A stretch of DNA of 64,000 nt from an uncultured Acidobacteriota bacterium (lineage in GTDB: Bacteria > Acidobacteriota > B3-B38 > Guanabaribacteriales > CAZYAF01), in the NCBI GenBank assembly GCA_964645975.1, contig CAZYAF010000005.1, forward strand, positions 4,332-68,331, read 5' to 3'. The position numbers and the translations under genes are program-made. Of this stretch, positions 2,217 through 64,000 are shown in pieces (the first letter of the stretch is position 1; every line of letters begins with the position of its first letter). The notes under the pieces were generated by a model that saw only the letters and a list, made by a program, of their open reading frames with translations, searched no databases and was not told the origin of the DNA.

Positions 2217-2704
2217 AGCTTGAGGTTCTTAAGCTAAGCATAGATATAAACTTGAGCAGCAAATCAAAAGAAGTTCTAAACTCTCTATTTTAAGAGATAC
2301 CCTCAATCATATAACATATATGTCACTGTATTTTATCTACTAATAAAAATTAGTAATAAATTATGTCTCAACGTAATATTAATCTTTTCTTTTTATGTAT
2401 CGTCTGTTTATTTATATTCTAAAGAGGTAATCCTGACATTCTTTAACAATTCTAAAATTCTTTTTACTTCTTTTTTCCCCTGCTTTCCTTTGAAAAACAG
2501 GCAATAGTATTTTATTAATATAATAAGATAAAGTTCTTTCAATAGTGCGAAGATATTGGTAATAATCTATAGAATAATGACTACATCATTATGAATGTGC
2601 TACAATATATTTGCATAAAATAATGTGCTAAAAAATAAGTGGCATATTTTATTATTCTTTTATAGCTATGAAAAGAGAAAGCTATTCTTTGCAGAGGAGG
2701 TAGA

Positions 2705-8386: not shown

Positions 8387-8576
8387 AGTGAAAAAACCTC
8401 TTTATTTTTTGCTCTGTTATAATGTTAGTAATCTTGTGATTTAAAAATTATTATACCAGAATAAGTTCTGTAATTAAGAAATAATATTAGTAGGTAAAAT
8501 AAGATTTTTGAGAAACCAAGAAAATTTTATGAGGAATAATCTCTTTTTTCGCAGATTGGATAATAGAGCTAAATAT

Positions 8577-17694: not shown

Positions 17695-18480
17695 TCACGC
17701 TTTATCTTCAAGTATAGCTAACTGTTCTTCAAATTTCTCAACAAAACCTGAAGTTTTTAGCAGTTCAAGACATTCATTACAAATATCAATAAGATCAGAA
17801 ATGCGCTTTTTAATTTCCTGAGATAAGGTATTTTCTTTAATTACAATATTAAGATTAGAACGGATTCTCACTCCGTAATCCAAAAAAGACCCATGCAGTG
17901 ATCTTTCAATTCCAATTCGATCTTGAGCAGCTCGCTCCAATTTGTTTTTTGCTATTGTAAGATAATCTCTTTCCAAGGAAATATATGAATCTATTAAAGT
18001 ATCATCATTTATATTTTTTAAAGGATATGTTATTTGATAAGCATTTGAAAAGTAGTTTCCTAATGCATAAATATTTGGCCCAGAATTAATAAATTGCCTA
18101 ATTAATTCAATTTTTCTTTCTGATGATCTTATATTTGAAAATGACCTCTTAAGTATATAAACACCAGCAGAAATAAGAGCAAGAGTGAATACTTGGAAAA
18201 GAAATGAGATTGTGCTTGAATCCAATGTCCCTTTGCTTTTTGATTGCAGTTGCATAAGTCTAACAATTTCTGATTGTATTAATTCTCCATTTGTTGGATT
18301 AGAATGCTCTTTTATACGATTTAATGCGTTTTTTATACTCAGTTGTATCCTCTTATTAGTAAGTTGAAGATTATAATATGCTGAAATTATAGCGCTAGAA
18401 CTTGTGATCATCATTACTATGAACATAACAATCAACAGAAAACTGCCTAGGCCCTCCATAATTTTACGATTTCTATTCAT
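17695..18480 (-). CDS. hypothetical 2-TM membrane protein, third gene of the kinase/receiver operon
   Basis: 261 aa; start ATG overlaps the receiver stop by 1 nt (TAATG); two hydrophobic helices; no recognised domain. Confidence 0.45.
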   Translation of the reverse strand: MNRNRKIMEGLGSFLLIVMFIVMMITSSSAIISAYYNLQLTNKRIQLSIKNALNRIKEHSNPTNGELIQSEIVRLMQLQSKSKGTLDSSTISFLFQVFTLALISAGVYILKRSFSNIRSSERKIELIRQFINSGPNIYALGNYFSNAYQITYPLKNINDDTLIDSYISLERDYLTIAKNKLERAAQDRIGIERSLHGSFLDYGVRIRSNLNIVIKENTLSQEIKKRISDLIDICNECLELLKTSGFVEKFEEQLAILEDKA

Positions 18481-18923
18481 TAATTCCTCCTCTCGACCAT
18501 GCGAGCGATAGCCTTAACTTTTCTCAAAACATGTCCTGTAGGTTTGGTAGAACCTCTCTTAGCAATTAAGCGGATTCCCTCTAAAAATTTGCTTTTCACG
18601 TGCTCTTTTAATTTGTCCATATACTCCGTATAGATAATAGTTTTTCGTTTCATTTCTTCATTATCTGTAAAGACATAATTGCTAAGCCAGACCCACCCTG
18701 TTAAAAGACCTCCTTTCGTATTCTTTATCTCCTCAGGTTTCAGACCATCTGGAGGCATATTTAGATCAGCAATAATGCAATCAATTTCATTTTGCTTTTC
18801 CTCCCAATAACTTTGCGCGTCATTAAAATTAAAGGCACTGAATATTGTATGCCCCTCATTTATTAAAGCATCCTCCAAATAGGATGAAACCGAACCGCGA
18901 TCTTCCAATATTAATATGTTCAT
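18480..18923 (-). CDS. stand-alone response-regulator receiver domain protein
   Basis: 147 aa; ILILED acidic pocket, IIADLNMP phospho-Asp region, conserved T and K positions; no output domain; ATGA overlap with upstream kinase. Confidence 0.65.
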   Translation of the reverse strand: MNILILEDRGSVSSYLEDALINEGHTIFSAFNFNDAQSYWEEKQNEIDCIIADLNMPPDGLKPEEIKNTKGGLLTGWVWLSNYVFTDNEEMKRKTIIYTEYMDKLKEHVKSKFLEGIRLIAKRGSTKPTGHVLRKVKAIARMVERRN

Positions 18924-21855: not shown

Positions 21856-24800
21856 ATGTTAACAAAAAATTTTAGATCGTTAAGCTGCTTAGCAGTTGCA
21901 TTGTTAATCTTTTTTGTGTATGTAATTTCCGGATATGCCCAGGAGATCAATCCTGATTTGTACAAGCTGCTTAAGTATCGTTTTATCGGTCCTCAGGGTA
22001 ATCGTTTTATCGCAGTGGTTGGTGTTCCCGGTGATCCCAATATTTGCTATGCCGGAGCAGCATCAGGAGGAATATTCAAGAGCACTGACGGTGGTATTCA
22101 CTGGGAGCCAATTTTTGATGACCAACCGGCTGCTTCCATTGGCTCGCTGGCTATTGCTCCTTCGGATGCCAATATCATCTGGGCAGGAACGGGAGAAATA
22201 TCCATACGCAGCAACATCTCACAGGGAAACGGAATCTACAAATCCACTGATGCGGGAAAAACCTGGAAGCATATGGGTCTTACGAAAACTGGAAGGATTG
22301 GTAGGATAGTAATTCATCCTCATAATCCGGACATCGTCCTTGCTGCATCTATGGGTCACTGCTACGGGCCGCAACAGGAGCGAGGTGTGTTTCGAACCAC
22401 TGATGGAGGCAAAACCTGGGAAAGGGTACTTTTTGCGGACGAAGATACCGGCTGCTCAGATATCATCATGGACCCCAACAATCCTCGTATTCTATTTGCC
22501 GGCATGTGGCCCAAGAGGATATGGCCCTGGCTGGAGAGAAAGAGCGGCGGACCGGGTGGCGGTATCCACATGTCGAGAGACGGTGGCACAACCTGGAAGC
22601 ACCTCACAGGGGGCCTGCCGGAACCACCGATTGGTAAGATAGCCCTTGCCATGTCAAAAAGCAACTCCAACAGGGTCTACGCTTTGATTGAGCATAAAGA
22701 TGGAGTTCTGTGGAGATCGGATGATGGCGGCGAGAGCTGGAAATTGATCAACCGTCACCATGAGCTTACTCACAGACCATCGTATTACACCCGCTGTGCT
22801 GTGGTACCTGACGATTACAATGAGATATATTTTGTAGCCACAACCTTCAGTGTGTCCTATGACGGCGGCGAGACGTTTAAAATTGTACCTCGCAATCAGT
22901 CTCCGGGAGGTGACAACCATGATATGTGGATCGATCCCCTCCTGCCCGACCGAATGATGGTGGGCAACGATAATCCCTGTGTCAGCATATCTCTTAATGG
23001 TGGCAGAACATGGGATAGAGTCCGACTTCCAACTGCTCAGATGTATCATGTACATGTAGACAATAAAATCCCATATTTTGTCTATGGTAATCGTCAGGAC
23101 GGACCCTCCACCAGAGGACCCAGCAATAGCCTTACTGGAAGACATATTCCATCAGGATTGTGGCATTCAGTGGGCGGCTGCGAATGCGGCTTTGCTATAC
23201 CAGATCCGGTGGATAATAACATCGTCTGGTCAGGCTGCTACGAAGGGATACTTGATCGCTTTGATCTAATTACGGGGCATAGTAGATCAGTGAGCGTATG
23301 GCCTGATTCATGTATCGGCACCGAGGCAGCTCCATTGAAATATCGCTTTCAGTGGACTTTCCCCATTGTAATCTCACCCCATGATAATAATAAAGTATTT
23401 GTTGGCAGTCAATATGTCCATCAGACAACCGATGGCGGGCACAGCTGGAAAATTATCAGCCCCGATCTTTCTACCAACAACAAAAAATATCAACAGCCCT
23501 TTGGAGGTATCACTCGCGATGATGAAAGCACCTATTGCTGTTGTATTTTTGCTCTGGCTGAATCGCCCGTGGAAGAGGGACTAATCTGGGCAGGTACCAA
23601 TGACGGGCAGGTACAGGTGACAAGAGATGGAGGAGAACACTGGACCAATGTCACAAAAAATATACCTGATTTTCCGCCCATGGGCACGGTCAGCAACATA
23701 GAGCCATCTCGTTATAATGCTGGGACCTGTTATATCTCAGTGGACTTTCACAATGCCAACATTCGTGATCCCTACGCTTATAAAACGACCGACTATGGTA
23801 ATACATGGGAATTGATAACCAAAGATATTCCCAAAGGTGAATTAAGCTATGTTCACTGTATCAGGGAAGATGCGAAGAGGAAAGGACTCCTTTATCTGGG
23901 AACGGAAAATGCTGTCTATATCTCCTTTGATGACGGCGATCATTGGATGGCTTTACAAAATAACCTTCCCCATGCGCCGGTGCATTGGCTTGTTGTGCAG
24001 GAGCATTTCAATGATTTGGTAATTGGTACCTATGGCCGCGGTTTCTGGATCATGGACGATATTACTCCATTTCAGGGGCTCACATCAGCAGTACTCAAGT
24101 CAGACGTTCATCTCTTCAGTATTCGCCCTGCCTATCGTTTTCAAATGGTTTCAAACCCAATGGGCGAAGAAGATGACTTAAACCTTGGTGAGAACCCACC
24201 TTATGGAGCGTCAATCAATTACTATCTAAAGTCTGCTCCCCAGGGTGATGTCAAAATTTCTATTCTGAATGAGAACGGACAAAATATTAGGACACTTGAT
24301 GGAACAAAGAAAGCGGGCATCAACAGAGTATGGTGGGATTTACAATATGAAACCTTGGATGTGGCAAAGATAAGAACCAGCCCCATCGGAGAGCCGTGGG
24401 TAAAAGTAGGAGCAAAAGGATATCGAACCTTAGTTGGTGTTGGCGGTCCTCCCAGGGTTCTTGTTGCCCCCGGTGTCTATGCGGTAAAGCTTACAGTTAA
24501 TGGGAAAGAATTCACCCAGCAGCTCACCGTGGAAAAAGACCCAAATTCAGCTGGAAGTAAGGAAGATATTCAAAAACAAGTTAAAATGCTATTGGAAATC
24601 CGAGATGATTTTAATAAGCTGGTTAAGATGATTAATCAAGTGGAATGGGTCAGAAAACAGCTTTATGGTTTAATGGAGATTTTAAAAGATGATAAAAGAG
24701 GAGAAGAGATAATAAAAACGGGTAAAGAGCTGGATAAAAAATTTATAGACCTGGAGGAGAACTTTTTTCAGATGAGGCTCACTGATTCCGATAACGATAT

Positions 24801-25029
24801 CCTGCGCTGGCCCTGCAAACTGCATTACAAACTATCCTTTCTTGCTCAACGAGTGGCTCAAGCTGATTTTCCACCGACCACTCAGCAGATTGAAGTACAC
24901 AAAATGTTCAAAGAACAGTTAAGAAATCATCAAAGTCGTTTAAAAGAATTGATTGATAAAGACCTTGGTGCTTTTAACAATATGCTCAAAGAAAAAAATA
25001 TATCGAACATTATTATTCAAACACCTTGA
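21856..25029 (+). CDS. secreted BNR/Asp-box repeat beta-propeller protein (sortilin/Vps10-like), paralog 1
   Basis: 1057 aa; signal peptide; at least 10 Asp-box motifs (STDGGIHW, STDAGKTW, TTDGGKTW, SRDGGTTW, SDDGGESW, TTDGGHSW, TRDGGEHW and others). Confidence 0.7.
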   Translation: MLTKNFRSLSCLAVALLIFFVYVISGYAQEINPDLYKLLKYRFIGPQGNRFIAVVGVPGDPNICYAGAASGGIFKSTDGGIHWEPIFDDQPAASIGSLAIAPSDANIIWAGTGEISIRSNISQGNGIYKSTDAGKTWKHMGLTKTGRIGRIVIHPHNPDIVLAASMGHCYGPQQERGVFRTTDGGKTWERVLFADEDTGCSDIIMDPNNPRILFAGMWPKRIWPWLERKSGGPGGGIHMSRDGGTTWKHLTGGLPEPPIGKIALAMSKSNSNRVYALIEHKDGVLWRSDDGGESWKLINRHHELTHRPSYYTRCAVVPDDYNEIYFVATTFSVSYDGGETFKIVPRNQSPGGDNHDMWIDPLLPDRMMVGNDNPCVSISLNGGRTWDRVRLPTAQMYHVHVDNKIPYFVYGNRQDGPSTRGPSNSLTGRHIPSGLWHSVGGCECGFAIPDPVDNNIVWSGCYEGILDRFDLITGHSRSVSVWPDSCIGTEAAPLKYRFQWTFPIVISPHDNNKVFVGSQYVHQTTDGGHSWKIISPDLSTNNKKYQQPFGGITRDDESTYCCCIFALAESPVEEGLIWAGTNDGQVQVTRDGGEHWTNVTKNIPDFPPMGTVSNIEPSRYNAGTCYISVDFHNANIRDPYAYKTTDYGNTWELITKDIPKGELSYVHCIREDAKRKGLLYLGTENAVYISFDDGDHWMALQNNLPHAPVHWLVVQEHFNDLVIGTYGRGFWIMDDITPFQGLTSAVLKSDVHLFSIRPAYRFQMVSNPMGEEDDLNLGENPPYGASINYYLKSAPQGDVKISILNENGQNIRTLDGTKKAGINRVWWDLQYETLDVAKIRTSPIGEPWVKVGAKGYRTLVGVGGPPRVLVAPGVYAVKLTVNGKEFTQQLTVEKDPNSAGSKEDIQKQVKMLLEIRDDFNKLVKMINQVEWVRKQLYGLMEILKDDKRGEEIIKTGKELDKKFIDLEENFFQMRLTDSDNDILRWPCKLHYKLSFLAQRVAQADFPPTTQQIEVHKMFKEQLRNHQSRLKELIDKDLGAFNNMLKEKNISNIIIQTP

Positions 25030-25048
25030 AGAGTTTTGCATATTTTTT

Positions 25049-25084
25049 TACCGCTTCCAACAGCAATAGCATGAGGAGGCGGTA
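25049..25084 (+). terminator. possible intrinsic terminator after BNR-propeller paralog 1
   Basis: stem TACCGCTTCC / GGAGGCGGTA with 16-nt loop; only a weak T-run follows. Confidence 0.3.
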
Positions 25085-25309
25085 TGTTTAAATGGAAACG
25101 GGAGCATAGTATTAAATTATTATCTTGATGAAAATTTTCGTCTACCTCATGCTCATAATATGCTATAGTAAAATATAAACAGCAGCACTTTGATTAATAA
25201 AGCACTGAAAAGTCTATATCTATAATTCTAATTATATACCTTCAATGAGAATCAATTATCTTATTAAAATTAATAAAGTATCATATATCAAAAATCCGAG
25301 GAGGAAAAT

Positions 25310-28300
25310 ATGTATTCAAATAACAAATCGTTAACTCCCATCATATTGATTACTGCAATGACCTTCTTTATTGTTTTCGTAATCCCTTTTCACTGCAATG
25401 CCCAGGAGATTAATCCTGAATGGTTTAATCAGCTCAAATATCGTTTCATTGGCCCTCAGGGAAATCGTGTTATTGCGGTGGTTGGTGTTCCTGGAGACCC
25501 AGATGTTTATTACATTGGAGCAGCTTCGGGCGGTATATTTAAAAGCACTGATGGCGGAACTCATTGGAAATCCATTTTTGATGAGCAGCCTGTTTCTTCT
25601 GTTGGTTCTCTGGCAATTGCTCCCTCCGATCCCAATATCATCTGGGCAGGTACTGGTGAGACATTTATTCGCAGCAATATTTCTATCGGAAATGGCATAT
25701 ACAAATCCACTGATAGCGGAAAAACCTGGAAACTTATGGGCTTGGAAAAAACAGGGAGAATAGGCAGGATTATTATAGATCCCCATGACCCAAATATCGT
25801 ATTTGCTGCGGCGATGGGTCATTGCTACGGACCGCAAAAAGAGAGGGGAGTGTACCGCACTATTGATGGTGGCAAGACCTGGGAAAACGTCCTCTTTGTG
25901 GACGAAAACACTGGTTGTTCGGATATAGTTATGGATCCCAATAATCGACGGATTCTTTTTGCTGGCATGTGGCAATTGCAAATAAAGACCTGGGGAAGAG
26001 TGAGTGGCGGACCGGGCAGTGGACTTTATATGTCACGAGATGGTGGTGCTACCTGGAAAAAGCTCAACGATAACGGATTGCCGAAATCACCGATAGGAAA
26101 AATTGCATTGGCCATGTCGCCTGATAATTCCGAACGAATCTATGCTTTAATCGAAAGCGATGAGGGAGTACTCTGGAGGTCAGATGACGGAGGTGACAAC
26201 TGGAAAATGATCAACCATGATCATATGTTGACCCAGCGCCCTCATTATTATTCACGCTGTGCAGTGGCTCCGGATGACTACAATGAAATCTATTTTTGTG
26301 CTGTTCAACTCAGCATCTCTCTCGATGGCGGATTAACATTTAAAGGAGTACGATTGGTGGGTGGTGATAATCATGATATGTGGATCGATCCCCTTAATCC
26401 AGCCCGAATGGTTGTGGGCAACGATCAGGTTGTTGCCATCTCCGTTAATCGTGGTAAGTCATGGTTAGGAGTACCTCTTCCCATTTCTCAAATGTATCAT
26501 GTGGCCGTTGATAATCAAATACCTTATTATGTGTATGGAAACAGACAGGATGGCCCTTCTACCAGGGGGCCAAGCAACAGCTTAACCTATGGAGGGATTG
26601 CTTCTGGAATGTGGCATTCGGTGGGTGGCTGCGAGTGCGGATTTGCAATTCCTGACCCAGTGGATAATAATATCGTCTGGTCTGGTTGTTATGGAGGGTC
26701 GCTGGACCGTTTTGACCTACGAACAGGACATAGTCATAGAGTAAGTGCCTGGCCTGATAATCCTATGGGATGGCCGGCTGCTGATTTAAAATATCGCTTT
26801 CAGTGGACCTTCCCCATAGCAATATCACCCCATGATCATGACAAGGTATATATAGGCAGCCAATATGTACACCAGACAACCGATGGTGGCCATAGCTGGA
26901 AAATTATAAGCCCGGACCTTTCCACAAATGATAAAAGCAAACAACAAAGCTCAGGAGATATTACGCCAGATAACGCCAGCGTTGAATACTGCTGTCTAAT
27001 ATTTGCCCTGGTAGAATCTCCTGTCGAAGAAGGAGTTATATGGGCTGGTACCAATGATGGACTTGTTTGGGTTACTCGCAATGGCGGAGAAAATTGGACA
27101 AATGTCACTAAAAACATACCAAAACTTCCGCCCTGGGGGACAGTGAGCAATATAGAGCCATCGAGATATAATGCCGGTACCTGCTATATTACCATTGATT
27201 TTCATCAGGTTAACAATAGAGAGCCATATATTTATAAGACAGCTAATTACGGAAAGAGCTGGAAATTCATAAGTTCGGATATACCGAAGAGTGTATTAAG
27301 CTATGCTCACTGTATCCGCGAAGACCCGGTAAAAGAGGGATTGCTTTATCTGGGGACGGAAAATGCTCTGTATGTATCCTTTAATGATGGAGAAAATTGG
27401 CTGCCTTTACAGAGTAATTTACCGCATGCTCCCGTGCATTGGCTTGTTGTTCAGGAGCACTTCAATGATCTCGTGGTGGCCACCTACGGACGCGGTTTTT
27501 ATATACTTGATGACATAGCACCGCTTCAACAATTAAATAAAGATATTATTAATTCGGATGTTCATCTTTTTGCTCCACGGTCAGCATATCGTTTTCGATT
27601 TAAAGCAACTCCCATGAGCCAGCCAGGTGATCCATGTGCCGGAAAGAATCCTCCCTATGGTGCTTCTATGAACTACTATGTAAAATCAGAGCCGGAAGAA
27701 AAGGTAAAAATTACCATTCTAAATGAAAAAGGCGAAAAAATAAGAACTCTTGAAGGTACTAAAGAAGTGGGTATAAATCGTGTCTGGTGGGATTTACAAT
27801 ACGAGCCGATTAAAGAAGTTAAATTGAGAACAAGCCCGATTGGCTCACCTCATGTGAAAGTAGGAGAAAAAGGATGGAGACCTTTAGCCACATGGGGCGG
27901 AAAAATTAGCATTTTAGCTGCTCCTGGAACATATACAGTAAAGCTTGCCATAGGTGAAAAGGAATACAGCCAAAAGCTTACAGTTAAAAGGGATCCTAAT
28001 TCAACGGGAACCGAGGAAGACATTGAAGCTCAGACTGAGCTGTTGTTAGAAATTCGCAAGCATATTAACAATGTGGTAGAAATGATTAACCAAATTGAAT
28101 TAATCAGAAAACAGATTTATGATCTAAACGAACTACTGAAAGGGGAAGAAAATTCGGAAACACTCATTAAAGCGGGTAAAGCACTGGATAAGAAGTTTAT
28201 AGCTATAGAGGAAAATCTCATTCAAATGAAACTTACAGGAGCATGGCAGGATGCCTTGAGATGGCCCATTAAGCTCTATGCTAAGTTGAATAGTCTTGCT

Positions 28301-28486
28301 GGTGGTATAAGTAGTTCTGACTTTCCTCCAACTACACAGCAGATTGAAGTATATGAAGTGTTCAAAAGGAAGTTAGCAGAATATAAAAACAGCTACAAAG
28401 AATTACTTGATAAAGATTTTTCTAATTTTAATAATCTTCTAAGAGAAAAAAAATTACCGAATATTATTGCTGTTAAAAACCCTTAA
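25310..28486 (+). CDS. secreted BNR/Asp-box repeat beta-propeller protein (sortilin/Vps10-like), paralog 2
   Basis: 1058 aa; GAGGAGG RBS; roughly 75-80% identical to paralog 1 over the N-terminal region; same Asp-box series. Confidence 0.7.
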   Translation: MYSNNKSLTPIILITAMTFFIVFVIPFHCNAQEINPEWFNQLKYRFIGPQGNRVIAVVGVPGDPDVYYIGAASGGIFKSTDGGTHWKSIFDEQPVSSVGSLAIAPSDPNIIWAGTGETFIRSNISIGNGIYKSTDSGKTWKLMGLEKTGRIGRIIIDPHDPNIVFAAAMGHCYGPQKERGVYRTIDGGKTWENVLFVDENTGCSDIVMDPNNRRILFAGMWQLQIKTWGRVSGGPGSGLYMSRDGGATWKKLNDNGLPKSPIGKIALAMSPDNSERIYALIESDEGVLWRSDDGGDNWKMINHDHMLTQRPHYYSRCAVAPDDYNEIYFCAVQLSISLDGGLTFKGVRLVGGDNHDMWIDPLNPARMVVGNDQVVAISVNRGKSWLGVPLPISQMYHVAVDNQIPYYVYGNRQDGPSTRGPSNSLTYGGIASGMWHSVGGCECGFAIPDPVDNNIVWSGCYGGSLDRFDLRTGHSHRVSAWPDNPMGWPAADLKYRFQWTFPIAISPHDHDKVYIGSQYVHQTTDGGHSWKIISPDLSTNDKSKQQSSGDITPDNASVEYCCLIFALVESPVEEGVIWAGTNDGLVWVTRNGGENWTNVTKNIPKLPPWGTVSNIEPSRYNAGTCYITIDFHQVNNREPYIYKTANYGKSWKFISSDIPKSVLSYAHCIREDPVKEGLLYLGTENALYVSFNDGENWLPLQSNLPHAPVHWLVVQEHFNDLVVATYGRGFYILDDIAPLQQLNKDIINSDVHLFAPRSAYRFRFKATPMSQPGDPCAGKNPPYGASMNYYVKSEPEEKVKITILNEKGEKIRTLEGTKEVGINRVWWDLQYEPIKEVKLRTSPIGSPHVKVGEKGWRPLATWGGKISILAAPGTYTVKLAIGEKEYSQKLTVKRDPNSTGTEEDIEAQTELLLEIRKHINNVVEMINQIELIRKQIYDLNELLKGEENSETLIKAGKALDKKFIAIEENLIQMKLTGAWQDALRWPIKLYAKLNSLAGGISSSDFPPTTQQIEVYEVFKRKLAEYKNSYKELLDKDFSNFNNLLREKKLPNIIAVKNP

Positions 28487-35269: not shown

Positions 35270-35830
35270 CTATTTATCTATTGTTATTACGTATCCTAGT
35301 TTTTCTAAAATTTCAATTGCTCTTTCTAAGGAACTTTGGTCAATTTTCCAGGCAAAAGATTTTGCTTTTTCCCTGATTTCTTCAGGAGTTATCGGTTTTC
35401 CTTCTTTATCAATGAAATAGTAAGCTTTTGCTGCTACAGATAAATCCATATAATCAATATTTCCTAACTGTTTCAATTCTGAGAAAAAATTTTTTATTCC
35501 ATTCCATTCATCTTTATATTTTTCTGCAATCCTTTTAGCTATCTTCTCTCCTGCTGGTGTTAATTCACAATCAAATCTTTTTCTTTCAAAACCATGGCTA
35601 TTGAAAATTCCGAGGTCTTCCTCTTTTTCATTGATTATTCCTATAGCGATTAAGTTTGATAATTCAATATTTATATCTGGCGAATAGGGACCGTAATAAT
35701 GTGGAATAAATCTCAAATCTAGACCTATATTTTTGTTAAGGAAATACATACATTTTTGCAGATATGTCTTCCCTTTGATATTGTTGTCATTTGCTAATAA
35801 TGCTAATAATATTAATTCATTAGCTTTCAT
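35270..35830 (-). CDS. Panacea (DUF4065/SocA)-like domain protein, translationally coupled to upstream HD-domain gene
   Basis: start set to ATG 35830 (MKANELILL) with AAAAAGGAG RBS; 11-nt overlap with HD gene stop; block TYLQKCMYFL...HYYGPYSPDI resembles Panacea domain core. Confidence 0.4.
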   Translation of the reverse strand: MKANELILLALLANDNNIKGKTYLQKCMYFLNKNIGLDLRFIPHYYGPYSPDINIELSNLIAIGIINEKEEDLGIFNSHGFERKRFDCELTPAGEKIAKRIAEKYKDEWNGIKNFFSELKQLGNIDYMDLSVAAKAYYFIDKEGKPITPEEIREKAKSFAWKIDQSSLERAIEILEKLGYVITIDK

Positions 35831-37154
35831 TAGCGACTCCTTTTTTATTTTTAAAATAATCACTTATTATATTATATATGATTTTATCATGTTTTTTATA
35901 CATTTTTTTCTTATCAACATTATCTTTATATTCTAAAGGAGCATAGCACTCTATAAATCTTTCTGACTTTTCTAAAATCTCATATAATTTAGATTCGTAT
36001 TTAATTTCTACTGGTTTGTCTGCTTTAACTACAAATAAATCAAGACCTTTATTTTTCTCGAAAATTCCCATAGAAATAATCTTTAAAATAACATCATTTT
36101 TATTTTCACTAATATTTCCAGCTATTTTATCTTCTAATTCTGCCTTTTCTTTTGTATCCATATTTTCTATTTGTAATCTTATATCTTCTTCGAAATTATT
36201 TATTTTTTGTGAAAAAACTCTTTTTAGCAATTTTCTATTGTAGAGATTGGAAAAGATTCTTCCGGCGTTAGTATTTTGATAATTTTCAAGTAATCTTATT
36301 GTTAATTTTTCGTCATTCCAATTTAAATATTCCTTCAAATATTCTGGTGAATCTTTGTAAATATAAATTTCTTTTAAAAAATCAATATTATCTACTTCAA
36401 CACCTAATTCAATTGCACGAACTATCATTGAATCAGTTATCAGTCTTACCTTATGCATATATACTTGAGAATCTATATAATATTTTGCTAAGAGAAATTG
36501 TTCAAAAGCTCTGATCCCATCTTCATGTATCATTAAAGAACGATCATATTTATCAATTGGTTCAGCTTTTATACTCTTGATAAGCTGATAATAATCATAA
36601 ATACCATATTTAACTCCGCAATGATAACTATCTCTTAGCAAGTAATCTATCTTATCTACATCTAAAGGTCCTGATATAATTTCTCGCAAATAACTTTCCT
36701 CATACCCTTCTTTTATTAAAGAAGAAATTGCTCTACATCTATTTTTTCCCAATATTCCGCACAATTCTTCATTTTGCTCTATTATTTTGCAAGTTATGGT
36801 TTCATGAAAATTGATTTTTCCGTGAATTCCTATATTTTCAGAAAGATTTTTCATAACCTCTTCTGATACATGAGAAAAAGGTCCATGACCTATATCATGC
36901 AATAATGCTGCAAATCGTAAGATTTCTTTTTTATCTTGGTCAATTTTTAGCTGTTCTGCAATTAATCCAGCTAAGTGCATAACCCCTAATGAATGCTCAA
37001 ATCTTGTATGATTTGCTCCGGGATAGACTAAATTTGCTAATGCTAACTGCTTGATTCTTTTTAATCTTTGAAATACTTCGGTGTCTATTATTTTTTGCTC
37101 AGTTTCATTAGGATGAATAAATCCATATATTGGATCACGAATATCAAATCTCAT
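35820..37154 (-). CDS. HD-domain phosphohydrolase, dGTPase/SAMHD1-like dNTP triphosphohydrolase family
   Basis: 444 aa; HTRFEHSLGV, LLHDIGHGPFSH and DVDKIDYLLRD motifs characteristic of dNTPase-type HD proteins. Confidence 0.7.
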   Translation of the reverse strand: MRFDIRDPIYGFIHPNETEQKIIDTEVFQRLKRIKQLALANLVYPGANHTRFEHSLGVMHLAGLIAEQLKIDQDKKEILRFAALLHDIGHGPFSHVSEEVMKNLSENIGIHGKINFHETITCKIIEQNEELCGILGKNRCRAISSLIKEGYEESYLREIISGPLDVDKIDYLLRDSYHCGVKYGIYDYYQLIKSIKAEPIDKYDRSLMIHEDGIRAFEQFLLAKYYIDSQVYMHKVRLITDSMIVRAIELGVEVDNIDFLKEIYIYKDSPEYLKEYLNWNDEKLTIRLLENYQNTNAGRIFSNLYNRKLLKRVFSQKINNFEEDIRLQIENMDTKEKAELEDKIAGNISENKNDVILKIISMGIFEKNKGLDLFVVKADKPVEIKYESKLYEILEKSERFIECYAPLEYKDNVDKKKMYKKHDKIIYNIISDYFKNKKGVANES

Positions 37155-55658: not shown

Positions 55659-57452
55659 TTACAGGCTCTTTTTTATATTCTCGGCAGGTTTCTTACCAAG
55701 GAGCTGGCTGAGCTCTTCCAGACTGGCTTCCCTTATTTTTTTAATTGAACCGAAGTGTTTGAGCAAAAGTTCCTTTCGCTTAGTACCAATACCAGGGACG
55801 TTGTCAAGCTCCGAGACAATGGTACGCTTTTTTCGTAGTTTGCAATGGTACGCATGGGCGAAGCGATGCGATTCATCTCGAATCCGTTGTATCAGCCGCA
55901 GCGCTTCCGAGCCCTCTTGCAGCTTCAACGGTTCCTTTACTGTAGAGGCATAGAGTATCTCCTCCCGTTTGGCAATGGCTGCTGTGGGCATATTCTCCAA
56001 TCCCAATGCTGTCAGTACATCCCGTGCAGCCGAGAGCTGCCCTTTGCCGCCATCAAGCAGCACCATATCAGGCAGTGCCTTCTCCTCGCGCAACAGCCGC
56101 TTATAACGTCGCGAAACCACCTCGGCCATGGAGGCAAAGTCATCCAGTCCCTTCACTCCCTTTATCTTAAACCTGCGATAATCCGCTTTCTTGGCTTTGC
56201 CATCCTCAAACACCACCAATGAGGCTACCGCATCGGTGCCCGAAATGTTCGAGATATCAAAGGCCTCAATCCTCCTCGGTAGTTCGGGCAAATTCAACGC
56301 CTGCTTAAGCGCATACAGCACGCCTTCTCCCTCTTCAATAGCAAACTTATTGCGAAAAGATATCCGAGCATTATCCAGTGCCAACTGCAAAAGCTTCCGC
56401 TTCTTTCCCCGGCTGGGCGAGGTGATGTACACCCGATTTCCGCGCAAACGTGTTAACCATTGCTCCAGCAGCGGTCGCTCCTCAAAATCGAGCTGCACGT
56501 ATATTTTCGGTGGGATGGGCTGATCCCCATTGTAATATTGTTTGATCATGGAGCTGATGAATTCCTCAGGCTGAAAATCCACCAGCCCTTTCCAGAAGAA
56601 CTCACGCCGTCCTACTACCAGACCCTTGCGTATATGAAAGACCTGCAAGCACACCTTATCAGCCAGATGATAGAAGCCGAAGAGGTCCTCCTCTTCCATT
56701 CGAGTGGAAGCCATGCGCTGCTTGCTGGCCTGCCGCTCCAGCACTTTGATGGCATCCCGATAGTGCGCCGCCTTTTCGAATTTCTCCTCACCCGATGCTT
56801 TCTCCATCTTCAGCTTAAGTCGTTCAAGTAATTCCCTGTTCTTGCCTTCTAACAGAAGCCGCACATCCTCAACCGCTGCTTCATACTCCTCTTCGGTTGT
56901 CAGCGCCGCACACGGTGCCAGACAGCGGTTAATCTGGTAATCGAGGCAGGGGGTGAAGCGTTTACCCGGCAGTTTCAAGTCGCACTGCCTGAGCTGCATA
57001 TGGCGGGCAATAAGGCGCATGGTCTTGCGAGCCAGGCTGGCCGGGATATAAGGCCCGAAATAGAGCGCTCCATCCTTTTTCACCCGGCGCACTAACCGAA
57101 CTCGCGGATAGAGCTCGTTGATGCTCAACCGCAGATAGGGGAAGTTTTTATCATCCCGCAGCCGAACATTATATTTGGGCTGTTCCTTTTTTACCAGGTT
57201 GTTCTCCAGAATGAGGGCTTCCAGCTCGCTTTCGGTGATGATGAATTCGATATCAGCCGCCTCGCTGAGCATGGTTTCCTGCTTGATGGGAGCTTCGCCC
57301 GGTGCTTGAAAATAGGAGCGTACCCGATGGCGCAAGGATTGAGCTTTGCCAATATATATGGCCTTTTCCAGTGCATCTTTAAATATGTAAACGCCGGGTT
57401 TTAGGGGGAAAGATTCGACCTTTTTTTTGAGGGTATCCAGGATGTTATTCAT
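55659..57452 (-). CDS. uvrC: excinuclease ABC subunit C
   Basis: 597 aa; N-terminal GIY-YIG (PGVYIFKD...IYIGKA) and C-terminal helix-hairpin-helix; start overlaps uvrB stop by 1 nt (TAATG). Confidence 0.9.
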   Translation of the reverse strand: MNNILDTLKKKVESFPLKPGVYIFKDALEKAIYIGKAQSLRHRVRSYFQAPGEAPIKQETMLSEAADIEFIITESELEALILENNLVKKEQPKYNVRLRDDKNFPYLRLSINELYPRVRLVRRVKKDGALYFGPYIPASLARKTMRLIARHMQLRQCDLKLPGKRFTPCLDYQINRCLAPCAALTTEEEYEAAVEDVRLLLEGKNRELLERLKLKMEKASGEEKFEKAAHYRDAIKVLERQASKQRMASTRMEEEDLFGFYHLADKVCLQVFHIRKGLVVGRREFFWKGLVDFQPEEFISSMIKQYYNGDQPIPPKIYVQLDFEERPLLEQWLTRLRGNRVYITSPSRGKKRKLLQLALDNARISFRNKFAIEEGEGVLYALKQALNLPELPRRIEAFDISNISGTDAVASLVVFEDGKAKKADYRRFKIKGVKGLDDFASMAEVVSRRYKRLLREEKALPDMVLLDGGKGQLSAARDVLTALGLENMPTAAIAKREEILYASTVKEPLKLQEGSEALRLIQRIRDESHRFAHAYHCKLRKKRTIVSELDNVPGIGTKRKELLLKHFGSIKKIREASLEELSQLLGKKPAENIKKSL

Positions 57453-59449
57453 TAATCTACAAACAGCTCAATGGCTTTTCTTTTAAGTTCTTTAATGCGG
57501 TCTCGAAGCTGAGCGGCGCGCTCAAATTCCAGCTTTTTTGCCGCATCTTGCATTTCCTTATCCAGTTTTTTGATGAGCTGGCGCCGTTCCTCGCTGGTCA
57601 GATATTCCTCTCGCTCCTCAGCGGCCATGGGTATTTCATAATAATCCGCTTCGTATACGCTGGTAAGGACATCCTTGATGGATTTCTTAATGGTCTCCGG
57701 GGTTATGTTATGAGCTTTGTTGTATTCTATCTGAATCTGGCGGCGGCGATTGGTCTCGTCTATGGTCTGTTTAATTGAATTGGTGAGATTATCGGCGTAA
57801 AGCACTACCTGACCATTAACGTTGCGGGCTGCTCGACCGGATGTCTGGATTAGGGAAATGGTGGAACGCAGGAATCCCTCCTTATCGGCATCGAGAATAG
57901 CCACTAGCGAGACCTCAGGTAGATCCAGACCCTCACGCAGGAGATTGATTCCGATAAGGACGTCGAAGTCGCCGCGGCGGAACTCGCGGATAATCTTGAC
58001 CCGGTCCAGGGTATCAATGTCGGAATGGAGATAGCGTACCTTAACGCCGAGCTCCTCATAATATTCCGTCAGGTCTTCGGCCATGCGCTTGGTGAGGGTA
58101 GTGACCAGCACTCGCTCTTTTTGCTCCGCTCTCTCACGGATGCGCTGCAGCAGGTCGTCCACCTGGTTCTGTGCCGGCTGGATGATTATCTCCGGGTCAA
58201 TGAGGCCGGTTGGTCGAATTACCTGCTCCACTACTTCGCCACCAGTCTTCTCCAACTCGTAAGGACCGGGAGTGGCTGAGACGTAAATAATCTGCTTCGC
58301 CCGCTCCTTGAACTCTACGAATTTCAGCGGGCGGTTGTCCAGTGCCGACGGAAGGCGGAAACCGTATCTCACCAGGGTGGACTTGCGGGAATGGTCGCCC
58401 TCGTACATGCCGCGCAGTTGGGGGATGGTAACGTGGCTTTCATCTATTACAATGAGGGCATCACGCGGAAGATAGTCCAGCAAACAGGGCGGCGGCTCTC
58501 CCGGCTTTCGGCCGGTGAGGTGGCGCGAGTAGTTTTCGATGCCCTGGCAGTAGCCGATCTCCTTCATCATCTCCAGGTCGTAGAGGGTGCGCTCGCGGAT
58601 GCGCTGAGCTTCTACCAGCTTGTTCTCTTTGAGCAATTTTTTATGGTGCACCTCCAGCTCTTCGCGAATGGACTGAAGGGCGCTGCGCATTTGTTCCTCG
58701 GGTGTAACATAATGGGATTTGGGGTAGATGGGCACCCGTTGGACTTCTTCCCTCACCTTGCCGGTGAGAGGGTCCACCAGCCTGAGGTGGTCAATCTCGT
58801 CACCGAAGAGCTCGATGCGCACGGCTTCGTCGGCATAGGGTGGGAAGACTTCAACCACATCGCCGCGCACGCGGAAGGTGCCGCGCCCGAAGCTCATGTC
58901 GTTGCGCTCGTACTGTATGTTCACCAGCTTGTGCAATATCTCCCGGCGAGAGATCTCCATGCCGTGTTCCAGCAGGAGCAGCATGCCGTAGTAGGCTTCC
59001 GGAGAGCCCAGGCCGTAGATGCATGAGACGCTGGCCACGATGAGCACATCGCGGCGCTCGAAGAGGGCGCGGGTGGCGGAGTGGCGCATGCGGTCGATTT
59101 CGTCGTTGATGTCGGCATCCTTGGCAATGTAGGTGTCTGTGGCGGGTACGTAGGCTTCGGGCTGGTAGTAGTCGTAGAAGCTGACGAAGTATTCAACTGC
59201 GTTCTGCGGGAAGAAGCTCTTGAACTCCTGATAAAGCTGAGCAGCCAGGGTCTTGTTGTGGGAGATGACGATGGTGGGGAGCCTGACCTGCTCCACCACC
59301 TTGGCCACGGTGAAGGTCTTGCCCGAGCCAGTGACGCCCAGCAGCACCTGATGCTGCTTGCCTTGCAGCACTCCCCGGGCTAACTCCTCGATAGCCGTGA
59401 CCTGGTCGCCTTTGGGCTCAAACTCCGAGATAAGCTTAAATTCACTCAT
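57452..59449 (-). CDS. uvrB: excinuclease ABC subunit B
   Basis: start set to ATG 59449 ([16 protein letters not shown]); Walker [13 protein letters not shown]-like helicase motifs, C-terminal UVR domain; upstream 45 codons of track ORF are non-homologous. Confidence 0.9.
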
Positions 59450-59580: not shown

Positions 59581-62500
59581 TCAATTAATTTCTATAAGCT
59601 GATTTAGTGCATCATTTATTTCTTTAGCATTAAATTTAGCTGATACAATATATTTTGTTAATTCATCTTTTTTAATAGAATCAATAAGATTTTCAAGAAA
59701 TTCAGAAATGGTTTTATAGTATTTCTCATTCTTTAATTGAGAAAATTCAGCGATAAGATAATTTTTTACTTCAATAACAGCATCACCAAGATTTTCCTCT
59801 TGCTTCCTAAATTTAATCCTATATCGATTATATAACTCAATTTCAAATTGATTTTTGGATGAGATTAATTGTTGAATTTTATGGTAATGACCAACTATTT
59901 TTTCCAAAGCTATAAGCAAAGCTTGGATTTTAAGGTTAATTTCATTTTTTGGATAAGGTTCAAATTGAATTTGTGGAAGATAGCTCCAAATTTCTTTTGG
60001 TGGTTCTCTTGGCACTAACCATTCCCAAGTACTTAGGTTATTAGGATCAAATTGGGAAATATTATTAGAACTTATTACGTAAGCACCTGGAATAAACCTT
60101 TTATCATTGAAAATAGGAATAATACAGAAAAATCCTGCTATATCTTTGACTTTATGAAGTTCTTTTATAACTTTTAATATAGATTCTATTAATAGAGAGG
60201 GATTATCTACAGAAAAAGCAAAAGGAAGATAAGTTATAGGATATTCAATATGTTCACCAGATGGAAGTATTATTTTCATACCTTCTACTTCAAGAGTAGA
60301 AAGTGCTTTGGATAGGAGATTAAGCTTTTCCTGACGTTTTCTCTGCCTTATAGTTTTAATATACAAATTAATATTTTGCAGAGGTTTTTCAGGAGGATTA
60401 AGTATCCATACTTCTAATAAATCCGCTAAACACTTATAAGCTTTTAATTCTAAGGAATCTAATTCGCATGAATTGAAATAGTCTGGTGCAATATTGAAAA
60501 TATATTTAAAAACAAGATGCATTTTTGGAAGCTGTTTTAAAGAATCAAAAAAGTTATGTACCGCTAATCTGCCTGTTTTAATTTCTTTCTTTCTTAAATA
60601 TTCTATTAATTGTATAAAAAAATTTTTGAAACTTAAAGAGCACTTATCAGCTGCATTTTCCTTTAGAATATCTTTTAAAGGTTGTTTAATTTCTTTCCCC
60701 ATTCTTTTAAAGTTTTCAATAGAAATAGATGGAGCAAATTTTTGCGACAGTTCTAACTCCTCTATAAGTCTACCATCATCGAATAAAGATTTAATATCAT
60801 ATTTTTTATTAGTTAAGATACAATTTAAAAATTTTGAAAAATTCTGTACAAAGAGCAATGATTTTTTTCGAAGAACGTACCAATGTTCTTCTAATTTATA
60901 AAAAGTATCAGTAAAATATGCTCTCTCTATAATATTACGCCATACTATATTCTTTTCAACATCAAATTCTAAAGGTAGATTTTTTTGGGGAATATTTTTA
61001 TATGTCTCATCTATAGACGGCTTTAAGCCTAAAGGCAGAAGCCATAAGCCTTGTGATTTATAATTTCTACAGAAGGGGATAGCAGCTCGTAATTTCTGAA
61101 GTTTTGATACCGCTTGATCATTAAAGCTTATCTTATTATCTGTTTCTGGTATAAACTCCATATATAACTCATTATTTTTAATTTCTAATGTAACACAGTC
61201 TGTATGTAATTTTAAATATCCTATAAGGGTATCAGTATTTTTTAAAAACCAATTTTTATATGATCTTTCATCATATCTATAAAGACCTTGAGTAAATTTG
61301 CAAAGAGTGTCTATATTAACTTCAAAAAACCTATTATATAAAAATATATTATTTTTAACTTTTTTCCAACTAGACAATTCAATATTGCATAAATAACACC
61401 AATCAAGAATTTGTCCTATTTTAGCTAAATTATTTCGGATTATATCAATATCCATGTATGCATTTATTTTGCTTAAAAAATTACTGCAGAATTCTATTCC
61501 TCTTGGAATATTAGTAAATCTTGTTTTTATTTCTTTTAACTTTCTAAAATTTTCAAAAAGATCTCCTTCCATTTCAGCTATAATATCTATCATATCTATT
61601 TTTGCTAATGGTATAAAAGCAGTGCTTAGCCAAAATGGACCGACTGATCCAACTAACTTGTATGCTTCATCAAATAGTCCACGATTAGCTTCAAAGAATT
61701 TTCTTTCACCTGCTTCAAAAATACCATCGAGGAAAGCTAAAATTGTATCTATTTTTGCATCTTTTGCCTTCTCAATTAGTCCATTCATAAAAAGTTCTGT
61801 ATCGAGTTCTTTTTTGGATATAGCATTTAATACAAAATTACTCATATTTTCTGATGGAACAGCATCTAAGATTGAAAGTGCTGTCCTTGCAGGATTAAGA
61901 TACTGCTCATGAAGGATCTTAGAAAGGTGATCAGATCGTACCCAATGAAGCTCAATAAGCAGTTCGTCTTCTATGCGCAGATATTCTTCGGATAAAGATT
62001 GCAGTACTTGTTGTGGATCATGTCTTAGTTGTATCTTATCAAGGAGTTTATTAACCAAAATAGGTGATCCCAATTCATGAGCCAAAGATACTCTGCGTAA
62101 TATTTCTATTTTAGCTGGATCTTCATTATGAGCTGTGATCTGTTTTACTTGGTCTCGAAGTCGTTCTTCGAGCATTTTTCCATGTGTGATAAAATAAACA
62201 TATTCCATCAGCAGAGGAGGCTCTCCAATTTTCTCGAATGCCCATTCTGCTGAATCAACAGAGTCGTGAATTCGATTTTGGATTTGAAAAGATTTAAATA
62301 TATCCTTTGCTTCATTGAGATCAAGTGCTGGTTCAAGTATTTCATAATTTGTTAAGCTTAGACGAGCAGTTCTATACCAATCTTCTTCTCTGATTGAGAC
62401 TAAAACATAGAAACCAAGAGAAGCACATTCTTGTGCTATATTTGGCCAGAGTCGAGTCTGCCAGCTGGCATTGTCTATAAGTAATAAAATTGGTATTCCC

Positions 62501-63528
62501 AGTCTTGCCTTTAATCTTAGGTATCTGCGTATAATCTCAACCTGTTCTTCTGATTTTGCTATCCTTAAAATATGTGTGTATTCCGAGTCCCAATTTTCAT
62601 ATGCATATCTGTAAAGTAATGTAGATTTTCCTTGTCCGCTTGAAGATTTTAGAATACAAACTTTGGAAATTTTTAATGCTTTATCAATCCTTTTAAGCCA
62701 ACTTGGGCGTTTGACATCAACATTAGAAACTATATGACCTGGTCTAGTCCCTTTGCCTTCGAAAAAGTCTACAATCTTTTCATCTTCTTGCCATATAATT
62801 CTATCAATTAATCCCTTTCCAGAAGCTTGATATTCACTCTCTTGAGCTAAATATTCACCTATTGTATCCCTAAGTTTTTCAAGTTCAAGGCGAGTAATTT
62901 CTTTTCGTTCCTTTGCCCAAGATATAAACTCAGCAGTGAAAGCTTTTATATATATGTCAACAGCATCGCTTCCTAAATTAAATTTTTCTGAAATAACCTT
63001 ACTAAGTTTTTTCCACAATTGATCTTCAGGAATTGATTCAATTTCTAGACGCTGAAGCAAATTATGGGCTTCATATTCATTTGAACCTTTCTGATTGCAT
63101 AAATTAATAAACTTATTCTTAATACGATTTTTTTCCTCATAGGAAAGCAATTTAAGTTTTGCTAGTTTAGCAATATCCTTCTTTAAAGAAAAGTTTGTTA
63201 TAAGTTTAAAATGAGCTTTAGGATTTATTTGTAATACTTCTAAGAACTTATTTATTGGATCTTTTAGTTTACTCCATGGCCATGGATTAATAGAAGTTTT
63301 AACTTGGATGTATATATCATTTATTGAATGTAAAACTAAAAGATCAACATCTTCAATCCCTTCAAGTCTTATAGAATGATATTTACAATCATTTTTTAAA
63401 AGATCAAAAGCACATAGTATAGAGTATAATAGTTGAAATTCAATACCACGAATGTTTTTGGCTCCACCGCCTCTTTGTTCAATAAGTTTAGTAAGATTAG
63501 TTTTTATACTTTTATTATTTGATTTCAT
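59581..63528 (-). CDS. large single-polypeptide putative defense protein: N-terminal PD-(D/E)xK nuclease (DUF4297/Mrr-like) + STAND-type P-loop NTPase + long alpha-helical C-terminal region (Avs-like architecture)
   Basis: 1315 aa; N-terminal [17 protein letters not shown]...[10 protein letters not shown]...IYIQVKT (D/E...QxK pattern); Walker A SSGQGKST; Walker [11 protein letters not shown]; sensor-like VLVSIR; [14 protein letters not shown] helical-domain start; very AT-rich. Confidence 0.55.
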
Positions 63529-63696
63529 ATCTAAACTTGATAAATGATTTATTACTTTTAATATTACTATATATAGCTAATTTGGTCAAGAGAATTTTTT
63601 ATATTTAATGGCTATTGAATGTTTTGTTGATATACAAATTTTTATTGATAAAAAATAAGCAATGCAGCACATTATTGGATGAGAAATAAGCAGCTG

Positions 63697-63822
63697 CGGA
63701 CAGAGGCAAGTCCCTACACAGGATTCCTTCGTAGGATTGACGGACAGACACAAGGCCTGTCCCTACACGGCTGCCCTTTGAAGGATAAAAACAGAGCGGC
63801 ATGGCCGCTTGTCCCTACACGG
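63697..63822. repeat. tandem array of three 12-bp GTCCCTACAC(A/G)G motifs at about 50-bp spacing, two preceded by CGGACAG half-palindrome
   Basis: cores at 63710..63721, 63759..63770, 63811..63822; CGGACAG at 63697 and 63741; related copies at 44543 and 55461. Confidence 0.5.
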
Positions 63823-64000
63823 AAAACGGTGGTCAGTTATCGGTTGTCTGTTGTTAGTCTCCAGTTGTCAGTTATTAGTATTTAGTCGCTGGTTGCGAGT
63901 TATGAAAGGATATCGCTATAGCCTTCGGCTATAACTATCGGACAGGAAGCGTGGCTTCTTTGCTATCTGATTGCAAAAACCGTACTTTTTCGAACCAATA

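Follow-up and report, generated by a model that had tools for sequence, protein, structure and literature searches.

The 64,000-nucleotide stretch analyzed here (the window) comes from an uncultured Acidobacteriota bacterium (contig CAZYAF010000005.1 of assembly GCA_964645975.1, positions 4,332 to 68,331 of the forward strand). Near its right end, directly upstream of uvrB and uvrC and in the same orientation, it carries a complete gene of 1315 codons, to whose product we assign with high confidence an N-terminal nuclease domain, a STAND NTPase module and a large C-terminal domain. In prokaryotes, STAND receptors made of a single protein correspond to the NLRs of animals and plants, and what triggers them is being worked out one family at a time. 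By analogy with the characterized members of this group we consider it probable that the gene specifies a stand-alone receptor of innate immunity, formed by one protein and of the antiviral STAND (Avs) kind. The same 1315-residue product is called as a gene on three metagenomic contigs of ~68-69 kb that were assembled independently; the chance probability of 1315 open codons at 30% GC, computed from base frequencies, is ~e^-109, and a frame of this length at that composition cannot come from chance. A preliminary description of the window, made from the letters and a list of open reading frames (ORFs), had already delimited this frame and quoted a series of motifs, all of which lie where it had placed them: EGIEDVD at residues 56-62, IQVK at 74-77, SSGQGKST at 296-303, a Walker B segment at 347-356, VLVSIR at 375-380 and a motif like the start of a STAND helical domain at 398-411. 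Most of the key residues of these motifs are invariant across the homologs. In what follows, residue conservation refers to an alignment of 73 homologs, Pfam and PADLOC scans to 36 homologs, and conservation of neighbors to 77 loci.

The N-terminal domain is, as predicted from sequence and model, a PD-(D/E)xK nuclease of the Cap4/DUF4297 type, one of the families to which its motifs had been likened, and its cleavage activity is a prediction. Q32, E56, D60, D62, Q75 and K77 are invariant, and G22, N25, G28 and E59 vary little or not at all. A profile built from the first 245 residues reaches the solved DUF4297 nuclease 8XAV with E = 2e-4, and the alignment pairs three motifs: IRGxxYQ, IE-x-IEDVD (here E56, E59, D60 and D62) and Q-x-K (here Q75 and K77), so that the columns of the catalytic core fall on IEcIEDVD...iQcK of that enzyme. 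A profile of the whole family, searched against sequences of the Protein Data Bank (PDB), had given only a spurious match to a formin, and the N-terminal profile was needed to reach DUF4297. Among the homologs, 26 of the 36 match the Pfam family Cap4_nuclease (PF14130, best E = 1e-7) and 29 match the PADLOC hidden Markov model (HMM) of LmuA (PDLC03848, best E = 2.6e-14). The PADLOC scan that had been proposed as a check identifies the nuclease in the homologs but returns no model for the window protein, which by itself reaches significance on no nuclease HMM of Pfam or PADLOC; its assignment as a nuclease therefore rests on the matches of the homologs, the invariant motifs and the fold. The NCBIfam search of the protein gave nothing useful. 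With respect to the fold, Foldseek aligns the model of residues 1-640 with the Cap4 structures 6vm5, 6wam, 6wan and 6vm6 (E ~6e-6 to 4e-5); residues 60-64 have low predicted local distance difference test (pLDDT) values in this model and look like a flexible loop. Experiments have established the DUF4297 domain of HerA-DUF4297 as a promiscuous nuclease of double-stranded DNA (dsDNA) that needs its PD-(D/E)xK residues and dimerization (PMC11291478).

The NTPase is recognized by the Pfam family nSTAND_NTPase5 (PF25199), which matches residues 254-386 with E = 1.4e-11 (44.8 bits, against a gathering cut-off of 34) and is matched by all 36 scanned homologs; this, together with the similarity to solved STAND proteins given below, bears out the STAND NTPase that had been read from the P-loop motif. 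A match to nSTAND3 stays below threshold (E = 0.004 for the window protein; 7 of the 36 homologs). S297, G298, Q299, G300 and K301 are invariant, forming the signature SGQGK(S/T), a Walker A of the pattern GxxxxGK[ST], and the same is true of R380, E382, D383 and W384, and of L527, H528 and R531. In the Walker B motif the Asp that comes after the four hydrophobic positions, D352, is kept in 71 of the 73 sequences, and at the second position, residue 353, 42 sequences have N, 20 have D and 9 have G. The D-N pair had been noted as a possible sign of a divergent subtype; it is present, but judging from the alignment it is a trait of the whole family and not an oddity of the window copy. The AlphaFold2 model of residues 1-640 (pLDDT 87, predicted template modeling score (pTM) 0.75) contains a five-stranded P-loop core followed by helices and then by a beta-hairpin at 517-526 that precedes H528; R380 stands at the end of strand 374-380, and E382-D383-W384 come after sensor 1. 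In Foldseek searches the top match of this model is SeAvs3 (8DGC, E = 4e-12), followed by EcAvs4 (8DGF, E = 2e-9), with alignments of 670-780 columns that run across both the nuclease and the NTPase; SAMD9, CED-4, Cap4 and Apaf-1 rank lower, and the Foldseek probability is 1.0 for Avs3, Avs4, CED-4, Apaf-1, SAMD9 and NRC3. The Avs-like logic suggested in the preliminary description thus agrees with the closest solved structures. In a 2026 survey of prokaryotic STAND proteins, K292, D358, R395 and H545 are the residues of SeAvs7 that contact ATP or ADP (PMC13581612); the spacing of K301, D352, R380 and H528 parallels that series, the distance from R380 to H528 being 148 residues against 150 between R395 and H545 as numbered there. 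By this analogy K301, D352, R380 and H528 may contact the nucleotide, H528 as the ADP-contacting histidine.

The remaining 755 residues form the presumed sensor. Their model is of high confidence (residues 561-1315, pLDDT 91.9, pTM 0.85) and consists of long helical segments broken by two beta-containing subdomains. The last ~900 residues had been described as helical and of low complexity; they are mostly helical, but 0 of 715 residues in the C-terminal region are flagged as low complexity. The repeat sensor that had been postulated was likewise not borne out, the region having no internal repeats and no likeness to tetratricopeptide repeats (TPR). No match at E <= 1e-3 was obtained when the domain was compared with the PDB by Foldseek, and no Avs sensor appears among the matches of either structure search. 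W710, P818, W829, N860, R887, E1027 and Y1031 are invariant. A HMMER search with this domain alone against 1.84 billion cluster representatives retrieved 258 matches, and in nearly all the full-length ones it spans residues ~600-1300 of a protein of ~1300 residues; for these reasons we regard the domain as rare and tied to one architecture. Longer variants of 1380-1530 residues were also retrieved by this search, in which Pfam recognizes no additional effector. The coordinates of the gene, of its domains and of the associated elements are given in Table 1.

Table 1. Location in the window of the nuclease-STAND-sensor gene, its parts and the elements around it
Feature	Position	Strand	Basis or remark
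Complete nuclease-STAND-sensor gene	59581..63528	minus	1315 aa, ATG start, stop codon 59581-59583
Cap4/DUF4297-type PD-(D/E)xK dsDNA nuclease domain, residues 1-240, predicted effector	62809..63528	minus	invariant motifs, profiles, fold
Predicted nuclease catalytic core, residues 56-77, E56-G-I-E59-D60-V-D62 ... Q75-V-K77	63298..63363	minus	alignment of 73 sequences, 8XAV alignment
STAND nucleotide-binding domain (nSTAND5), residues 250-400	62329..62779	minus	Pfam PF25199, model, Foldseek
Walker A SSGQGKST, residues 296-303	62620..62643	minus	alignment of 73 sequences
Walker B LLLIDN, residues 348-353	62470..62487	minus	alignment of 73 sequences
Sensor-1 arginine and R-x-E-D-W block, residues 380-385	62374..62391	minus	alignment and model
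Helical and winged-helix domains of the STAND module, residues 401-560	61849..62328	minus	model; invariant H528
Large C-terminal domain, presumed sensor, residues 561-1315	59584..61848	minus	helical, beta-containing subdomains ~778-847 and ~1093-1153
Sigma-70-like promoter candidate of the gene (TTGACC, 17 nt, TAATAT)	63561..63589	minus	33 nt upstream of ATG; consensus scan
REP-like repeats CAAAGG-N-CCGTGTAGGGACAG and GC-rich hairpin, upstream of the gene	63670..64000	minus	three copies in the window, four beyond its end
Segment missing from the near-identical relative L091	59517..64000, continuing ~140 nt past the window end	n/a	blastn; total ~4.6 kb

Taken in the broad sense, an Avs protein joins in one polypeptide an effector of a type used in defense, an NTPase with a winged helix and a sensor of at least 400 residues, and its effectors are modular. 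All these elements are found here: the effector at residues 1-240, the NTPase and winged helix at 250-560 and the sensor at 561-1315, with the Cap4 nuclease as the defense-type effector and modularity provided by two homologs (L059 and L060) described below. The order of the parts is that of Avs3, Avs4 and Avs7, in which an N-terminal PD-(D/E)xK nuclease (of Cap4 type in SeAvs3 and SeAvs7) precedes the STAND NTPase with its winged helix and a large C-terminal sensor, and all of them are, like this one, single-gene systems. In contrast to these proteins, the NTPase of this family belongs to another clade (Pfam nSTAND5), Asn usually takes the second Walker B position, and the hosts are environmental bacteria and archaea instead of Enterobacteriaceae. 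The sensor also differs from those of Avs3 and Avs4, since it is no TPR solenoid and matches neither theirs nor any other solved structure; a TPR-like or other repeat sensor, as in the named Avs types and bNACHT proteins, is not found here. The likeness to Avs5 (SIR2-nSTAND3-sensor) is limited to the weak nSTAND3 similarity below the Pfam cut-off, and the effector of Avs5 is a SIR2 NADase; SAMD9 is among the top structural matches of residues 1-640, but the sensors of both Avs5 and SAMD9 are repeat-based.

The nuclease domain itself is shared with other systems. HerA-DUF4297 (8XAV) and the CBASS effector Cap4 have the same domain with the IRGxxYQ, IEDVD and QxK motifs, and nucleases of this type are promiscuous on dsDNA and are switched on by induced dimerization or oligomerization (PMC11291478). 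In those systems activation depends on the HerA hexamer or on a cyclic oligonucleotide bound to SAVED, whereas here it would depend on the fused STAND NTPase; no HerA or CD-NTase partner is conserved across the 77 loci, and the locus of the window has no HerA gene. The best PADLOC match of the N-terminal domain of the family is LmuA, the Cap4-nuclease subunit of Lamassu; however, LmuA lacks a STAND NTPase, and Lamassu depends on the SMC-like LmuB (and on LmuC); LmuB is not a conserved neighbor across the 77 loci and matches only 2 of 129 neighboring ORFs in one batch. Public homologs already carry the labels of Pfam PF25199 and of the NCBI name 'dsDNA nuclease domain-containing protein', both computational only and assigning no function, and the term nSTAND5 is absent from the papers in the literature searched. 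The 2026 survey divides prokaryotic STAND proteins into 589 clades and their sensors into 684 clusters and was seeded partly on Cap4-fused STAND proteins (PMC13581612); the family is probably catalogued there, and none of the experimentally characterized families described in its text matches this architecture and host range (PMC13581612). The type of system is known, and what is of interest is the fold of the sensor and the spread across archaea and bacteria.

Regarding this spread, 368 homologs were found, mostly full-length and of ~1300 residues, and at least 230 relatives occur among ~185,000 species representatives, in more than 15 bacterial phyla; the archaeal carriers are Halobacteria, Methanophagales (ANME-1), Methanocellaceae, Methanosarcina, Methanothrix and Methanospirillum. 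After the allele of a related contig, L087, the closest relatives of the window copy are archaeal, with 58-59% identity over residues 1-640, and such relatives of a bacterial copy imply a transfer of the gene family between domains of life. In L059 and L060, which are deltaproteobacterial/myxobacterial, the NTPase and the sensor are kept and Cap4 is replaced by a calcineurin-like phosphoesterase (Metallophos PF00149, E = 9e-11 and 2e-14), the homology running from residue 241 to ~1190-1240; such an exchange of effectors is typical of Avs-type proteins. About 8 of the 77 genomic copies are split, two of them by insertion sequence (IS) elements, a pattern that fits a potentially toxic gene being inactivated often. 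In plasmid pREB4 of Acaryochloris marina (L029) the gene is interrupted by an IS1-family transposase, and in Methanospirillum stamsii (L039) by a transposase of rve/Mu type.

The surroundings of the gene vary from genome to genome: no neighbor or partner gene is conserved in the 77 loci, and the same holds for an integrase or a transposase. The ORFs that lie within 5 kb of the gene, 255 from 40 loci, give strong PADLOC matches, which are single-HMM matches given as family counts, to Type I and Type IIG restriction-modification, PD-lambda-4 (Avs8), PDC-S01/S02, components of CBASS, Lamassu LmuB, Gabija GajA, Septu PtuA, PARIS AriA and Old. The consistent housekeeping context that the preliminary description had named as contrary to its reading was not observed, given that the neighbors are not conserved, that defense genes are frequent within 5 kb and that a near-identical relative of the window strain lacks the gene. 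A different function in which the protein takes part mainly in conflicts between mobile elements, or is a selfish or addiction-type module (for example in plasmid or integrative and conjugative element exclusion) instead of serving the host against viruses, would fit the DUF932/SSB-type conjugative-element genes beside some Bacteroidota copies, the ISL3 fragments and the toxin-antitoxin neighbors of others (MazE, and HicA near the L087 allele) and the copies on plasmids of Acaryochloris and Hymenobacter. Nevertheless, most copies lie on chromosomes and only 2 near-full-length ones occur among 72,556 plasmids, integrases, transposases and partner genes are not conserved around the gene, and the inserted segment of the window has neither a recognizable mobility gene nor a target-site duplication; we consider such a function quite improbable.

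For the antiviral receptor that we favor, the sequence of events can be proposed from what is known of Avs3, Avs4, Avs7 and HerA-DUF4297, from which the order of the steps, the oligomeric state, the DNA target and the role in defense would all be carried over. At rest the protein would be an ADP-bound, autoinhibited monomer. On infection, the C-terminal 755-residue domain would bind a molecule that is specific to infection, most probably a conserved viral protein; the STAND module, through K301, D352, R380 and H528, would then open, exchange ADP for ATP and oligomerize. Oligomerization would gather the Cap4/DUF4297-type nuclease domains at the N-termini so that active dimers form, and these would cut dsDNA without sequence specificity, viral and host alike, so that the infection is aborted. 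In its entirety this mechanism is, in our opinion, probable, and the computed results on which it is built are the anatomy of the protein, its conserved residues, structural kinship, accessory status, genomic context and modularity.

Several observations weigh against this proposal. None of the 36 scanned homologs matches the PADLOC models for AVAST I-V and bNACHT at E <= 0.01, and the window protein alone matches neither PF14130 nor any PADLOC model at E <= 1. The second acidic residue of Walker B is missing in 73% of the members, and ATP hydrolysis may in consequence be weak or absent. The sensor is unlike TPR and unlike any known Avs sensor, giving no hint of the ligand, and it is 28-53% identical across domains of life with many invariant residues, an unusual conservation for a receptor engaged in an arms race. 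At the window and at three further loci that were viewed closely, housekeeping genes and not defense genes adjoin the gene; the defense matches among the neighbors are counts per family and not controlled rates per locus; plasmids almost lack the family, and phages lack it altogether. Finally, no characterized member of this nSTAND5 nuclease family was found in the literature searched, archaeal Cap4-STAND proteins included.

Some of these properties of the sensor could be accommodated by keeping the architecture and the activation of the nuclease through the same oligomerization, and by assuming that the C-terminal domain responds to something that is not a protein or that comes from the host: a nucleic-acid structure, for instance, a small nucleotide-like molecule or, in the manner of a guard, the disturbance of a conserved host factor. 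The domain is compact and non-repeat, mixed helical and alpha/beta, with no TPR and no solved homolog; it carries many invariant polar and aromatic residues; and the identity of 28-53% is maintained between methanogens, cyanobacteria and Bacteroidota, hosts that have few viruses in common. The 2026 survey leaves non-protein sensing open and cites the sensing of host factors by bNACHT25 and Avs7 (PMC13581612). Weighed against the binding of a conserved virus protein, a cue of this sort seems unlikely to us. A broader formulation sees in the last 755 residues a STAND sensor of a new kind, compact, non-repeat, strongly conserved and common to archaea (ANME-1, methanogens and haloarchaea) and many bacterial phyla, which would recognize something other than the phage structural or replicative triggers of Avs1-21, be it a nucleic-acid feature, a small molecule, a perturbed host factor or a hallmark of archaeal and bacterial viruses; we put this forward very tentatively, as doubtful. 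If it were true, this would be the first Avs-like receptor with demonstrated archaeal function, a non-TPR sensor and a mode of sensing other than that of protein shape.

The general principle of Avs-type immunity is already established. To our knowledge, the characterized STAND receptor families all come from a narrow, mostly enterobacterial set of hosts and nearly all have TPR-like sensors. The present family brings together a familiar effector and a familiar switch with a sensor that has no solved relative, and it spans the divide between bacteria and archaea, including methane-cycling archaea whose defense against viruses is poorly known. The identification of its trigger would widen the catalogue of prokaryotic immune sensing and would test Avs-type immunity in archaea.

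The locus itself offers a clean natural presence/absence pair for studying gain and loss. In L091, a contig of 117 kb, uvrB, uvrC, an aminotransferase gene, rmuC, liaF and an ABC gene follow each other in the same order, and the gene is missing upstream of uvrB; the encoded proteins are 93-98.5% identical to those of the window (UvrB 97%), except for a small LiaF-like protein with 86.5%. By blastn, homology with L091 restarts 65 bp past the stop codon of the gene, at position 4954 of L001 (window 59516), exactly at the -35 box of uvrB, and on the upstream side L001 297-331 matches L091 9836-9870, inside a REP-like (repetitive extragenic palindromic) element. The ~4.6-kb segment so delimited carries this gene only, and no mobility gene or target-site duplication is recognizable in it. 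L087, whose UvrB is 87% identical, has at the same site an allele that is 61% identical, while its neighboring enzymes are 78-87% identical. The gene is therefore accessory and fast-evolving.

The composition of the gene had been taken as consistent with recent acquisition. Its GC content is 29.6% overall (24-37% in windows of 500 nt) with a GC content at third codon positions (GC3) of 0.18, on a window background of ~37% GC and GC3 0.30-0.40, and uvrB and uvrC have 51-55% GC and GC3 0.60-0.70. The contrast with uvrB is thus real, but the values given for it, about 23% for a sampled 60 nt and 67% for uvrB, are not those of the genes: uvrB itself has 53-55% GC and does not exceed 58% in any 500 nt, and it is the GC3 alone that attains 0.67-0.70. 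The nuclease-STAND gene stands out by its low GC and uvrBC, just as strikingly, by a high one. Recent acquisition proved too strong a claim, and low GC was rejected as proof of it: the diverged allele of L087 shares the low GC3 (0.18-0.20 in the two alleles) at the same site, which indicates that the gene did not newly arrive in the window strain alone.

An association with DNA repair was also considered, in which the protein would be a housekeeping or repair accessory factor tied to uvrB-uvrC-rmuC, such as a nuclease that responds to damage and is transcribed together with the genes of nucleotide-excision repair. The gene lies directly upstream of uvrB-uvrC in the same orientation, with no terminator-like hairpin in the 131-bp spacer, L087 has the same adjacency, and RmuC is encoded 4 kb downstream. 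Against this, L091 (UvrB 97% identical) has an identical repair cluster without the gene, repair-gene neighbors are conserved in none of the other 77 loci, uvrB retains its own promoter, which is conserved in the gene-less relative, the GC3 of the gene is 0.18 against 0.60-0.70 in uvrBC, and the protein diverges much faster (61% identity) than the repair enzymes (83-87%). An explanation of this type is largely refuted and we give it hardly any credence. A functional tie to uvrBC was consequently rejected, on the basis of L091 and of the absence of conserved neighbors in the 77 loci, and the adjacency is positional, not functional. A seeming overlap of 4 nt between the gene and uvrB is an artefact of an upstream TTG, the real start of uvrB being the ATG at 59449; the AT-rich spacer between them contains a sigma-70-like promoter of uvrB. 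As to the promoter candidate of the gene itself (Table 1), promoter-type matches in this AT-rich region barely exceed the shuffled expectation (31 found against 23 expected).

The repeats upstream of the gene are dispersed, lineage-specific elements that resemble REP sequences or miniature inverted-repeat transposable elements (MITE), with units of ~34-45 nt; seven copies in the same orientation lie at L001 1-800. Further copies, intergenic, occur at L087 1-260 and at L091 5565-5667, 7996-8094 and 9650-9870, where they flank the empty site. They match no Rfam family, and a CRISPR-like array or a known RNA was rejected because of their irregular spacing and the lack of an Rfam match. A direct repeat of 137 nt, 97% identical, is found at the end of the contig, and all three assemblies break there. 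In the window as a whole, no tRNA, rRNA or Rfam element was detected.

The high GC of uvrB and uvrC (window 55659-59449; GC3 0.70 and 0.59, respectively) recurs in L087 and L091, and being common to two related lineages this anomaly is old. The GC of the aminotransferase gene and rmuC, downstream of uvrBC, is mildly raised too. The nearest named relatives of the window UvrB, at 69-73% identity, are from Aminicenantes, 'candidate division B38' and Thermodesulfobacteriota metagenome-assembled genomes; in L092 (UvrB 76% identical) the genome has ~50% GC and uvrBC looks native. These data suggest that uvrBC was anciently acquired from a donor of higher GC or, alternatively, that both genes are under unusual codon selection. 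In L087, positions 8515-9453 between uvrC and the aminotransferase gene contain a HicA-toxin-like gene and a helix-turn-helix (Xre-type) gene; the insert is missing from the window contig and L091, which makes this gap another variable spot.

Elsewhere in the window, the minus strand at 35270-37154 carries a pair of low-GC genes (GC3 0.17 and 0.22). The first encodes a 444-residue protein with HD and HD_assoc_2 domains and a partial match to a PADLOC dGTPase model (E = 4e-16), and the second a protein of 197 residues that weakly resembles the C-terminal portion of DarG as well as PDC-M19A (E = 1e-7); the pair may be another small defense locus. Two other genes of low GC3 (0.20 and 0.26) are found on the minus strand at 17695-21238, one encoding 261 residues with no Pfam or PADLOC match and the other 772 residues in which only HATPase_c is recognized. 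On the plus strand there are two sets of tandem paralogs: at 1650-3277, two membrane-like proteins of ~190 residues that start with MLGKGYIKKAW, and at 21856-28486, two secreted-looking proteins of ~1057 residues with similar N-termini.

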